DNA from: an uncultured Bacilli bacterium
GTDB lineage: Bacteria > Bacillota_I > Bacilli_A > RF39 > UBA660
NCBI GenBank assembly: GCA_934167885.1
Contig: CAKPMB010000007.1
Span: 612-64,611, forward strand
Reading direction: 5' to 3'
Length of the DNA: 64,000 nucleotides
Shown: positions 29,529-33,131 of the stretch, in pieces
Layout: each line of letters begins with the position of its first letter
Position numbering within the stretch: position 1 is the first letter of the stretch
Position numbers and translations under genes: made by a program
The notes under the pieces: model-generated
Databases searched by the model: none
Told to the model about the DNA's origin: nothing
What the model saw: only the letters and a program-made list of their open reading frames with translations

Positions 29529-30185
29529 TTATTTTATATAATCTTTTAACGAAATTTCTGTTCCATCTTTAGTAATGGCGTATGGAATATTTTTGTAATT
29601 ATTTTCAACAACAGATACTATATCCTTAAGGTTATTAACATTCTTTATATTGACTTCACCCTTTTTATATAAATCACTTACATAAAAATATGATAAAGTT
29701 CTATCATCTTTTATGAAGACAAAAATATCAGTTTTTCCAGAAGTAGAAGCATAATCATGAATGTAATAAGCTGTCATAATATGATCAAATTTATATGCAC
29801 TTATTGTAAAATCACCGCCATCGCGAAATGATTCTCCCTTTAACGTATAACTTTTACATCTACTTTGAAATTTTAAAAGACTATTTTTTGTAGCATTGTC
29901 ATTATACACATTTTCAGGATATACAGTTACATAAGCATTTCCATCCACATCAACATATACCCTCGAATATTGTCCTGCACCATAAACCCATTGAAGTTGT
30001 TGCCTTTTTATTAAATTATTTTTTATGGCACTATTATCATTATTTGTGTTATTGTTTTTATTATCAACGATTTCATTATTTTTCTTATTCAAACATTTAT
30101 CATAAACAATAAAACCGCCTAGACCAAGAACTAAAATAAATAAGATTATTACTAAAACAATTAAACCAGTATTTTTCTTTTCCAT
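29529..30185 (-). CDS. Tandem-paralog family member 1 (N-terminal TM anchor, conserved C-terminal domain)
   Basis: MEKKNTGLIVLVIILFILVLGLGGFIVYDK..., Asn-rich linker, ...PYAITKDGTEISLKDYIK. Confidence 0.6.
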   Translation of the reverse strand: MEKKNTGLIVLVIILFILVLGLGGFIVYDKCLNKKNNEIVDNKNNNTNNDNSAIKNNLIKRQQLQWVYGAGQYSRVYVDVDGNAYVTVYPENVYNDNATKNSLLKFQSRCKSYTLKGESFRDGGDFTISAYKFDHIMTAYYIHDYASTSGKTDIFVFIKDDRTLSYFYVSDLYKKGEVNIKNVNNLKDIVSVVENNYKNIPYAITKDGTEISLKDYIK

Positions 30186-30236
30186 TTTTTTACTCCCTTT
30201 AACAATTATTTTTATATTAAGTTATAAGCACTAATT

Positions 30237-30920
30237 TTAATATTCAGTTATATATTTTTCTAAAAGTATCTCAGTTCCATCTGAAGTAATAGCATATGGT
30301 TCACTATAGTTTCTAACAATTGATACCACATTTTTTAAGCCATCAAGCTCTTTATAAAATATCTCACCACCAAAATATATGTGATTAGGCATAAAGAACG
30401 AAACAGTTCCATTTTCTTTAACAAAGGCAACCATCTCATAATTATCAACATCGCCTATATCTACAGAATATGCTGTTAAAACTTTATCAGTTAACTTATA
30501 AGCATTTATAGTTACCTTTTCATCAGATTTAGAATTATTACCATAAACTTTAAAAGAATAATTTTGAGTCATTTTCTTAAACTTTGCAACCATTTCTTTC
30601 TGATGTTCTGCACCAGCATTACCATTAAAATTGGCATCAGATTTCAAAGAAACGTAAGCATTTCCTTCAACATCCACCCAAATATTAAAATATTCTATAT
30701 CACTAATAAGTTGAACTTCCTTGCGGTTGGCTAAACTATATTTATAAATAGTATCATCATTAGTAGAGCTATTGTTATTTTGATTATTATCATCTTTTTC
30801 AGTAATATTATCATTTTTATTATTTAAAACTCTATCATAAATAACAATACCACCTAAACCTAAAACTAAAAGCAATAAAATTACTATAAATACAATTAAC
30901 CCAGTATTTTTCTTTTCCAT
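30237..30920 (-). CDS. Tandem-paralog family member 2
   Basis: Same N-terminus (start at MEKKNTG, RBS AAGGAG); ...YAITSDGTEILLEKYITEY. Confidence 0.6.
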   Translation of the reverse strand: MEKKNTGLIVFIVILLLLVLGLGGIVIYDRVLNNKNDNITEKDDNNQNNNSSTNDDTIYKYSLANRKEVQLISDIEYFNIWVDVEGNAYVSLKSDANFNGNAGAEHQKEMVAKFKKMTQNYSFKVYGNNSKSDEKVTINAYKLTDKVLTAYSVDIGDVDNYEMVAFVKENGTVSFFMPNHIYFGGEIFYKELDGLKNVVSIVRNYSEPYAITSDGTEILLEKYITEY

Positions 30921-30948
30921 TTTTCTAACTCCTTTCAACAAATCATAA

Positions 30949-31569
30949 TTATTTTATATAATCTTTTAACGAAATTTCTGTTCCATCTTTAGTAATGGCA
31001 TATGGCGAATACAAAAAGTTGCTTCCAGATACAGAAACAGCATCTTTAACATTAGAAATATTTTTTAATTTTAAAAATTCTTCACTTGCTATGTCATCAT
31101 AAAAATATGATAAAGTGCCATCTTTCTTCAAAAAGATGAAGTGATGACCTGAATTATAAACGCTTAATACATTACTAACATTTAACTTATACCCAGTAAT
31201 TGTATTTTCATTATTACTATTGACATAACCATTAATGTTATATTTCATAGAATTTTTTTCAAATTGAAGCAAATTACTTTTTATAACTTTTGCATCATAA
31301 TTATTATCATCTATATTTGGTTTTTTAGGCATCAAAACATAAGCATTTCCAAGTGTATCAACAAGAACATTCACATCATCACCATTAACAATTTGAACAT
31401 CCTTCATTTCTTTTAATTCTACTTTTACATTATTATTTTCATTATCATTGTTATTTTTGTTATTTTTTTCTTTAAAAACTTTATCATACGTAATAAAACC
31501 ACCTAAACCTAAAACTAAAAGTGATAAAATTACTATAAAGACAATTAAACTAGTATTTTTCTTTTCCAT
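30949..31569 (-). CDS. Tandem-paralog family member 3
   Basis: MEKKNTSLIVFIVILSLLVLGLGGFITYDK...YAITKDGTEISLKDYIK; its 3' end is near-identical at DNA level to member 1. Confidence 0.6.
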   Translation of the reverse strand: MEKKNTSLIVFIVILSLLVLGLGGFITYDKVFKEKNNKNNNDNENNNVKVELKEMKDVQIVNGDDVNVLVDTLGNAYVLMPKKPNIDDNNYDAKVIKSNLLQFEKNSMKYNINGYVNSNNENTITGYKLNVSNVLSVYNSGHHFIFLKKDGTLSYFYDDIASEEFLKLKNISNVKDAVSVSGSNFLYSPYAITKDGTEISLKDYIK

Positions 31570-31605
31570 TTTTCTAACTCCTTATCATTTATTTTACAAA
31601 AGAAT

Positions 31606-32256
31606 TTATTTTATATAATCATTTAATGCAATCTTTTTTCCATCAAATGTAATAGCAAATGGCATACCAGTATATTGGTTATCACCAATAGATATAACAT
31701 TTTTTACGTTATCAATATTTTTTAAATTGAATTCGCCTTTATAATATATATCGTAAGTAGAAAAATATGATAAAGTACCATCTTTTCGTATTAATATGCA
31801 ATACTCTTTATTATCATTTTTACTATGAACAAAGTATGAAGCTAAAAAGTCATCACCTTGTATTTTATAAGCGTTTAAAGTATTTTCATCTTCAAAACTA
31901 TCATCTGATGCTTTAAGTGGCGTTTTCACATATGGAGATAAAGCTTTATCTAAATTATCTAAAATCTCTTTATCTATATGTTCTGTAGGTCCCCATTGAA
32001 GAATATAAGCACCACCATTTGTATCAACCATAGTAAGCAAGCAGTTATTGTCCGCACTTTGTTGAACATACTTTCTATTTAACAAACTATACTTGTATAA
32101 AACATCGTTAGTGCCATCTTTATTATTATTTGTAATTGGCTTATCATCGTTTTTATTTTTTAAACATTTATCATAAACAATAAAACCACCCAAACCTAAA
32201 ACTAAAATAGATAGTATTACTGTTATAATAATCAATCCAGTATTTTTCTTTTCCAT
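31606..32256 (-). CDS. Tandem-paralog family member 4
   Basis: MEKKNTGLIIITVILSILVLGLGGFIVYDK...FAITFDGKKIALNDYIK. Confidence 0.6.
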   Translation of the reverse strand: MEKKNTGLIIITVILSILVLGLGGFIVYDKCLKNKNDDKPITNNNKDGTNDVLYKYSLLNRKYVQQSADNNCLLTMVDTNGGAYILQWGPTEHIDKEILDNLDKALSPYVKTPLKASDDSFEDENTLNAYKIQGDDFLASYFVHSKNDNKEYCILIRKDGTLSYFSTYDIYYKGEFNLKNIDNVKNVISIGDNQYTGMPFAITFDGKKIALNDYIK

Positions 32257-32282
32257 TTTCTAACTCCTTTTACCTTTTATTA

Positions 32283-33131
32283 TTAATTTTTAATATAATC
32301 ATATAACTCTACTTCTTCACCATCTAAAGTAATAGCGTATAATCCTGAGCCTCCTCTATTGCGTGGAATAGATACAACATTCTTTAATCCATTAACATCT
32401 TTAACTTCTATATTTCCTGTAGCCATTATTTCTGATACAAAGAAATAAGATAATGTTCCATCTTCTTTTAAGAATATAAAGCAATTAGCAATACCATTAC
32501 CATAATCAACAAAGTAAGCAGTTAAAACATTTTTAATATTTAATTTATATGAACTTAATGAATATGGGCCTGGCCCAGGAGTTGTATAACCCTTAGGATA
32601 ATAGTCTTTGAATGTTTTGACAAATTTAATTAAATTATTCTTTTTATCAACATCATCAATATTATTGCCAATATCTTCAGGATTGCCAAAAACAGTAACG
32701 AAAGCCTCACCATTAGTATCAACAACAACAGATAAAGGATCATATGAATCAATTACTTGAATATATTTTCTCTTTGATACATTGTATTTATATTGATTTC
32801 CGGTTGGACAATCTTTATTAGTTTGTCCTCCAGTATTTTTGTCATCCTTTGTATTATCATCTTGTTTGTCATCATTATCAGTTTTGTTATCATTATTATT
32901 TTTGTTATCAATAGTTTTATCATTGTTACTTAAAACCTTATCATAAACAATAAAGCCACTCAAACCTAAAACAAGAATAGATAAAATTATAGCAAGCATT
33001 ATAGCAAGCACAATCAAAGCTTTGTTATTTTGATTATCTTTTTTGTTTTCTTTTTTTACTTCTTCTTTAGTTTCAACTCTAGTTTCATTTACTTTAGTTT
33101 CATTAACTTCTTTTTTGTTTTCTTTTTCCAT
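32283..33131 (-). CDS. Tandem-paralog family member 5 (extended charged N-terminus)
   Basis: A Lys/Glu-rich leader, then ALIVLAIMLAIILSILVLGLSGFIVYDK and the conserved C-terminal domain ...YAITLDGEEVELYDYIKN. Confidence 0.6.
   Translation of the reverse strand: MEKENKKEVNETKVNETRVETKEEVKKENKKDNQNNKALIVLAIMLAIILSILVLGLSGFIVYDKVLSNNDKTIDNKNNNDNKTDNDDKQDDNTKDDKNTGGQTNKDCPTGNQYKYNVSKRKYIQVIDSYDPLSVVVDTNGEAFVTVFGNPEDIGNNIDDVDKKNNLIKFVKTFKDYYPKGYTTPGPGPYSLSSYKLNIKNVLTAYFVDYGNGIANCFIFLKEDGTLSYFFVSEIMATGNIEVKDVNGLKNVVSIPRNRGGSGLYAITLDGEEVELYDYIKN

Follow-up and report, generated by a model that had tools for sequence, protein, structure and literature searches.

We analysed a 64,000-nucleotide (nt) stretch of contig CAKPMB010000007.1 from an uncultured Bacilli bacterium, hereafter the window, and in particular an array of five co-oriented paralogous genes that sits between uvrC (33238-35055) and a tad pilus operon devoid of flp. 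The window has a G+C content of about 26%, its minus strand holds nearly all long open reading frames (ORFs), and its host is one of the uncultured gut Bacilli with reduced genomes, a lineage about whose surface biology there is hardly any knowledge. The coordinates of the ORFs and the alignment of their products bear out the original prediction, made from the letters of the window, that five consecutive minus-strand genes encode paralogs of 206-282 amino acids (aa). The array is also, as had been described, co-oriented with the tad genes and immediately 5′ of them, and we identified among these the genes for TadE-like, TadZ-like, CpaF/TadA, TadB and TadC proteins.

Aligned end to end, the other four members reach 39-49% identity with member 1, and the five-way alignment has 40 invariant columns. 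Each protein combines a signal-anchor module with a linker and an ectodomain (Table 1). Scans of the five proteins against Pfam, NCBIfam and PHROG returned sub-threshold matches only, caused by transmembrane (TM) or low-complexity regions. The ORF tool extends member 2 to a TTG at 30941; we count this gene from the ATG.

Table 1. Position and main characteristics of the array, the repeat unit, the spacer and the tad operon in the window
Feature	Position	Strand	Description
Member 5	32283-33131	minus	282 aa; 33-residue Lys/Glu-rich N-terminal extension, presumably cytoplasmic; Ala at the Gly7 position; longest linker; domain is a strain-variable cassette
Member 4	31606-32256	minus	216 aa; missing in the 3-copy strain
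Member 3	30949-31569	minus	206 aa; Ser at the Gly7 position; missing in the 3-copy strain
Repeat unit	30921-30999	minus	3′ end of member 3, spacer and ribosome-binding site; together with the 5′ module, its copies delimit the indel of two genes
Member 2	30237-30920	minus	227 aa counted from ATG; module variant GGIVIYDR; present in the 3-copy strain (L001)
Member 1	29529-30185	minus	218 aa; signal-anchor module, Asn/Asp-rich linker and ~150-aa beta-rich ectodomain
Spacer between member 1 and tadE	29388-29528	minus	141 nt; weak hairpin and TGnTATACT extended -10-like site
TadE-like protein	29052-29387	minus	111 aa from GTG, opens MNRKG/QALVEF; PF07811 2.6e-9; 671 homologs; conserved operon synteny
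Rest of tad operon	24350-29092	minus	Second weak TadE/G-like protein, 164-aa two-TM protein, ParA/TadZ-like ATPase, CpaF/TadA, TadB, TadC (T2SSF)

Identity within the array and variation between strains

The five genes had been described as having near-identical ends, a description that holds for part of the array. At the 5′ end, the string ATGGAAAAGAAAAATACTGG is exact in members 1, 2 and 4 and has one mismatch in member 3; no copy is expected by chance. The opening MEKKNTG, which had been attributed to all five, is not that of member 5, which carries a 33-residue extension before the helix and has Ala at the Gly7 position, and member 3 has Ser there. Likewise, the sequence GGFIVYDK, given as part of the opening of every copy, does not apply to member 2, which reads GGIVIYDR. 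At the 3′ end, near-identity is confined to members 1 and 3: a 46-nt string, likewise no chance match, has exact copies in these two only, their longest common run is 53 nt, and the similarity extends beyond the stop codon into the non-coding spacer. All other pairs show 3′ nucleotide identities of 51-79%.

Concerted evolution or gene conversion had been proposed on the basis of these ends. For the 3′ tract this part of the proposal stands, and the identity of members 1 and 3 looks like a recent recombination or duplication tract. We rejected gene conversion at the 5′ end of the array, because the codon identity there is near the between-species background (where residues of the helix are identical, a fraction of 0.56-0.65 also have the same codon between copies of the window, versus 0.46-0.54 between species) and because the same 20-nt start, ATGGAAAAGAAAAATAC(N)GG, identical or with one or two changes, is found in other species too.

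Furthermore, we found that the array differs between strains. It comprises five copies in the window and in a 116-kilobase (kb) contig (L078), versus three in the metagenome-assembled genome (MAG) of a related strain (GCA_019420605.1, locus L001). Nucleotide comparison revealed that members 4 and 3 are missing from L001 and that the indel is bounded by a repeated segment made of the ribosome-binding site plus the module; positions 9201-9375 of L001 align twice to the window, at ~32320-32147 and from 30986 downward. Since it is flanked by a repeated segment, this indel has the footprint expected of unequal homologous recombination.

The two strains also differ in the content of the array. Member 5 of the window and its counterpart in L001 are 98-100% identical at the nucleotide level from 33131 to ~32780, a region that encodes the N-terminus and the linker, and then only ~60% identical over 32780-32283, with the drop coinciding exactly with the start of the folded domain. 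Other metagenomic proteins pair the long or the short N-terminus with either type of domain, and the difference in member 5 is a cassette replacement. A polymorphic surface family had been offered as an alternative in the original prediction, and it is supported by both the three versus five copies and the replaced domain of member 5. No phase-variation switch, be it a homopolymer tract or an invertible element or promoter, was noticed in the array.

The anchor module and the ectodomain

A protein search with member 1 returned ~33 full-length relatives, while ~85 of the 120 listed matches cover only the first ~15-40% of the protein, at 44-91% identity, and continue into unrelated sequence. A scan of the GTDB species representatives provided 71 loci belonging to other species, which were fetched together with flanks of up to 10 kb per side. 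These loci originate from uncultured gut MAGs, labelled mostly as Bacilli, Erysipelotrichaceae or 'Tenericutes' with a few others, from human, goat, sheep, rabbit and mouse hosts. Using local hidden Markov models on the fetched loci, we found the module in 102 ORFs (92 distinct module sequences from more than 60 MAGs) and the ectodomain in only 23 ORFs; 1916 representatives were recovered by a profile search at E ≤ 1e-3. Rather than being specific to the array, the N-terminal segment is a signal-anchor module of the whole lineage, reused on some 90 further ORFs whose ectodomains are unrelated. It is covered by no Pfam or NCBIfam model, and no partner gene consistently adjoins the module genes in the 71 loci. 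The module could be used to list the surface proteomes of this gut Bacilli lineage from MAGs.

The layout of the module is a basic cluster, a helix and then a motif, with the near-invariant core of the 92 sequences, (L)GG[YF]I[VI]YDK, located where the helix ends on the outer side. What precedes the hydrophobic run is variable: the module ORFs have G, S, A, K, L or M there, or no residue at all, and a Gly is often followed by Lys. In the 33-sequence alignment of the family, the columns with ≥90% conservation do not include Gly7. With a variable residue at position -1 and a conserved core at the helix exit, the module is not a class III (prepilin) signal. The leader had been noted to lack Glu at +5, and indeed each of the five copies has V, I or L there and none has Glu or Asp. 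Neither PF07811 nor PF13400 matched any of the five copies at E ≤ 1, in the same run that gave the neighbouring TadE-like protein its match at 2.6e-9. The same ectodomain is found behind a lipoprotein signal (LVGC) in the homolog P0132 and behind other, unrelated TM anchors in P0124 and P0140, indicating that the anchor is interchangeable and the domain extracytoplasmic. The module itself, so strongly conserved at the helix exit, is the most interesting by-product of this analysis, and we found no explanation for this conservation.

At the DNA level, the module is a recombination handle for copy-number change and probably also the source of assembly chimeras. In other species, module genes form arrays of two to four at L031, L038, L041, L045, L047, L062 and L063, and the module codons are 95-100% identical within each of these loci, which points to recent duplication or gene conversion, unlike what we found for the array of the window. 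Module and linker are fused in frame to Mrr, ribonucleotide reductase, NFACT and Trans_reg_C in P0043, P0048, P0089, P0114 and P0115, all of them on contigs of only ~0.6-3 kb. Because they are confined to such very short contigs, we judge the fusions to cytoplasmic domains to be probable chimeras of metagenome assembly across repeated module DNA and not biology. Beside three module genes in L028, an ORF at 5812-6975 opens with MENKKG/LTLIKFLAIIGILSVL, a start reminiscent of type IV pilin signals, with Lys at +5.

For the ectodomain, we modelled member 1 with AlphaFold2 using the 33-sequence alignment. The model, with a predicted local distance difference test score (pLDDT) of 78.9, consists of a helix (residues 6-36), a disordered linker (~34-52) and a beta domain (65-212) in which about twelve strands form three four-stranded sheets, accompanied by two helices. 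Foldseek searches of PDB and BFVD with this single domain gave weak matches, mostly to beta-propellers such as WD40, DDB1 and RCC1-like proteins (best E ~6e-3, template-modelling scores (TM-scores) 0.25-0.37). Some proteins of the family carry the domain twice in tandem, and the model of one of them, P0198 (pLDDT 66), matches RCC1, Mala s 1, BamB and Photorhabdus propeller lectins at E values of 4e-5 to 1e-3 and TM-scores of 0.2-0.3; the sequence of P0198 also has a weak match to the Tachylectin family of Pfam (E 0.007). We modelled P0198 with a view to a six-bladed propeller closed by its two domains; at moderate confidence and with low TM-scores of the propeller matches, the model does not show such closure.

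The domain family has ~200 representatives at E ≤ 1e-10, some of which match the anchor module alone. P0201, a protein of 3257 aa with 22 'stretches', was removed from the family after its sequence was read and the match recognised as compositional and false. When PDB sequences were searched with the profile of the family, no match fell below E 0.066. As in beta-propellers (RCC1 repeats, BamB, PHL/PLL, tachylectin), the predicted sheets are four-stranded and antiparallel with 'x-D-G-x-x-Y/S' hairpins; unlike beta-propellers, a single domain of the family comprises only some three sheets, none of the models closes into a propeller and there is no homology at the sequence level. The ectodomain defines an undescribed extracellular domain family, with a fold that the models suggest to be propeller-blade-like.

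The tad operon and its linkage to the array

The gene next after tadC, on the same strand, encodes YebC. The TadE-like protein carries the sole canonical class III signal in the locus, and MNRKG/QALVEF is probably its real start. The locus had been predicted to contain no Flp-type pilin ORF, and a six-frame scan of the window confirmed the absence of a canonical Flp (G/xxxxE[YF]); across the six frames, G-x4-E occurs in the TadE-like gene and at three unrelated sites beyond the tad locus, and nowhere else. The prepilin-peptidase (A24) motif GxGD[x]K is absent from every frame of the window. Imam et al. (2011) described Gram-positive tad operons that have no flp and contain a TadE-like gene, and proposed the TadE-like protein as the subunit (PMC3244431). 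The operon of the window resembles their 'no Flp' groups in that it has TadZ, TadA, TadB, TadC and TadE-like proteins and neither flp nor tadV in the locus, a likeness that concerns this operon and not the five paralogs. The TadE-like protein is likely the pilus subunit and, given that flp-less, TadE-containing operons are a known class, there is no need to recruit the five paralogs as the missing pilin.

The gene order tadE-tadE2-tadZ-tadA-tadB-tadC-yebC is syntenic across several gut Bacilli species (L080, L081 and L083-L089, with tadE at ~9001 or 6001), and no tadV or flp gene was found in these loci. What precedes tadE varies. In one clade, at L083-L086 and L088, it is always a co-oriented gene for a ~800-aa Cadherin-like protein, directly upstream with a gap of 77 nt; the protein, translated for L083 only, begins with a Sec signal and is anchored by a TM segment at its C-terminus. 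In L080, the genes before tadE encode a 6167-aa MBG_2/YDG repeat adhesin followed by a 396-aa TM-anchored protein; in L081 tadE is preceded by UDP-glucose dehydrogenase, and in L089 by an unannotated gene that is cut by the contig end. The 164-aa two-TM protein encoded at 28195-28689 (minus strand), between the second TadE-like gene and tadZ, matches no family; the window, L001 and L081 have it, whereas the operons of L080, L083, L085 and L088 lack it but are otherwise syntenic.

Next, we examined whether the family co-occurs with tad loci in other genomes, as the original prediction had suggested checking. In the loci sampled it does not: tblastn with TadA, TadB, TadC, TadZ and TadE of the window detected no TadA, TadB or TadC match within 10 kb in the 71 loci of other species, and only two weak ParA-type matches. 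The closest homolog from another species, P0002, lies between NUDIX and MntP genes, and P0028, a 37%-identical homolog, adjoins Rce1-like and ffh genes. Furthermore, the domain family is single-copy at every sampled locus of other species. The position of the array beside the tad genes is peculiar to this species, and the apparent link of the array to Tad pilus assembly is thereby removed.

Gene spacing within the array is 26-51 nt, the genes of the tad operon overlap or abut, and member 1 and tadE are 141 nt apart. The hairpin in this spacer is flanked by A/U and has a free energy of -9.3 kcal/mol (z -1.75), which is not significant. A consensus scan found no terminator in the 141 nt, such a scan being uninformative in DNA so AT-rich. 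Judging from the spacer, it is plausible that the array and the tad operon are transcribed separately.

Interpretation of the array and other features of the window

We consider that the array probably encodes strain-variable, membrane-anchored surface binding proteins and not pilus subunits. The five proteins would be single-pass and of type II topology (N-in, C-out), each held by an uncleaved signal-anchor helix; the long charged N-terminal tail that precedes the helix in member 5 is evidence for an ectodomain outside. A disordered linker of ~20-70 residues, rich in Asn, Asp and Lys, would hold the ~150-aa all-beta ectodomain off the membrane. This ectodomain, with about three four-stranded sheets predicted to resemble beta-propeller blades, may act as a ligand-binding module of the adhesin, lectin or receptor type. 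The array would then offer a repertoire of divergent variants, possibly under selection for variation. Between strains, homologous recombination at the conserved 5′ module and the conserved 3′ segments would lead to gain and loss of copies and to cassette replacement. Neither processing nor polymerisation by the Tad machinery would be involved. This interpretation draws on observations of the paralogy, of how the module is distributed, of other loci where tad linkage is lacking and of the differences between strains: as in a variable surface multigene family, the array consists of anchored and presumably surface-exposed paralogs that differ in number and content between strains.

The Vlp, Vsp and Vsa families of Mycoplasma are clusters of paralogous surface lipoproteins that contain low-complexity regions, have a highly conserved segment for membrane targeting at the N-terminus and diverge in their exposed parts, and recombination makes them differ from strain to strain in copy number and content. 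We take the array to be comparable in these features, its hosts presumably being likewise genome-reduced, host-associated, low in G+C and related to Mollicutes. Unlike the Mycoplasma proteins, those of the array are anchored by an uncleaved TM helix with a GG[YF]IVYDK exit motif and have no lipobox (one distant homolog has one), their exposed part is a folded ~150-aa beta domain instead of tandem repeats, and their anchor module is common to many genera and many unrelated ectodomains.

Several points weigh against a family of surface binding proteins that is independent of the pilus. The binding function of the ectodomain is read from its architecture alone. The TM-scores of the fold matches are low (0.2-0.37), so that 'propeller-like' is a hint at a fold class and no assignment of homology, and hhalign among the three sheets of the domain detected no significant internal sequence repeat. 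Moreover, a co-oriented gene for a surface protein lies directly upstream of tadE in three of the four other readable operon contexts, and some functional coupling of the array to the pilus may exist.

Such coupling would be expected if the slot upstream of tadE kept co-regulated surface proteins working with the pilus, for instance in attachment after pilus contact, the five paralogs then being Tad-associated adhesins or accessory proteins and not pilins. The syntenic operon with surface-protein genes upstream of tadE in L083-L086, L088, L080 and the window is consistent with this idea, which we nevertheless regard as unlikely: the proteins encoded in the slot belong to unrelated families, none of them with a pilin signal; in L081 the slot is taken by UDP-glucose dehydrogenase; none of the homologs sampled in other species is tad-linked; and member 1 is parted from tadE by 141 nt that hold a weak hairpin and what may be a -10 element. 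The independent contexts sampled are few.

Another explanation starts from the GG[YF]I[VI]YDK module, which could be a dedicated N-terminal sorting or processing signal, with a membrane enzyme that releases or attaches the ectodomains and with the five paralogs among its clients. The near-invariance of the motif at the outer helix end in 92 distinct sequences from more than 60 MAGs, despite unrelated ectodomains, would fit such a role, as would the layout of basic cluster, helix and motif and the lack of a Pfam or NCBIfam model; the module would then be a mirror image of the C-terminal signals made of a motif, a TM segment and a basic cluster (PEP-CTERM, LPXTG). We give this explanation a small chance only, as no gene family is consistently adjacent to the module genes in the 71 loci and no candidate enzyme was found, as helix packing, the needs of membrane insertion or descent from one shuffled 5′ exon-like cassette would explain the conservation equally well, and as some family members do not have the module. 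Slimmer still are the chances of the wider proposal, in which the module is an undescribed sorting signal of a gut Bacilli lineage with a dedicated membrane enzyme, and in which that surface-display system takes in the five paralogs and perhaps the neighbouring Tad pilus. If true, it would amount to a new protein-targeting pathway, of which there is no demonstration here.

The original prediction named as its first option unusual large Tad-dependent substrates or anchors of pseudopilin type; on this reading the proteins would be cut after Gly7 and take the place of the missing Flp in or on the filament. We find this highly improbable. The five paralogs do share with Tad pilins and pseudopilins (Flp, TadE, TadF) and with the modular type IV pilins of monoderms a basic leader, a helix of ~21 residues and a C-terminal globular part, the order of short basic leader, Gly and hydrophobic run being present in three of the five copies, and their genes adjoin tadE in the same orientation in a window with no Flp ORF. 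Unlike type IV pilins and pseudopilins, the array has no conserved Gly or Ala at -1, no acidic residue at +5 and no PF07811 or PF13400 match; the Gly is conserved neither in the family nor in the module, and the conserved residues lie at the C-terminal end of the helix, the wrong one for a prepilin. The TM anchor is interchangeable with a lipoprotein anchor, as in P0132, and both family and module occur without nearby tad genes. In the window itself there is no prepilin-peptidase motif, and the site of the TadE-like proteins encoded there is another one, KG/Q. Finally, Flp-less operons with TadE-like proteins as proposed subunits are already known (PMC3244431).

Apart from the array of putative surface binding proteins, two further regions of the minus strand drew our attention. 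A SipW-type (archaeal/ER-type) signal peptidase I is encoded at 36720-37367 (TIGR02228, 2e-26) and is flanked by genes for unannotated proteins with N-terminal hydrophobic segments (35516-36190, 36190-36723 and 37364-38155); the region 35516-38155 may be a TasA/SipW-like secreted-fibre operon. Two adjacent genes at 19994-20791 and 20806-21600 encode proteins of ~265 aa that both open with MSY and have no Pfam match, and this region may hold a second tandem paralog pair.

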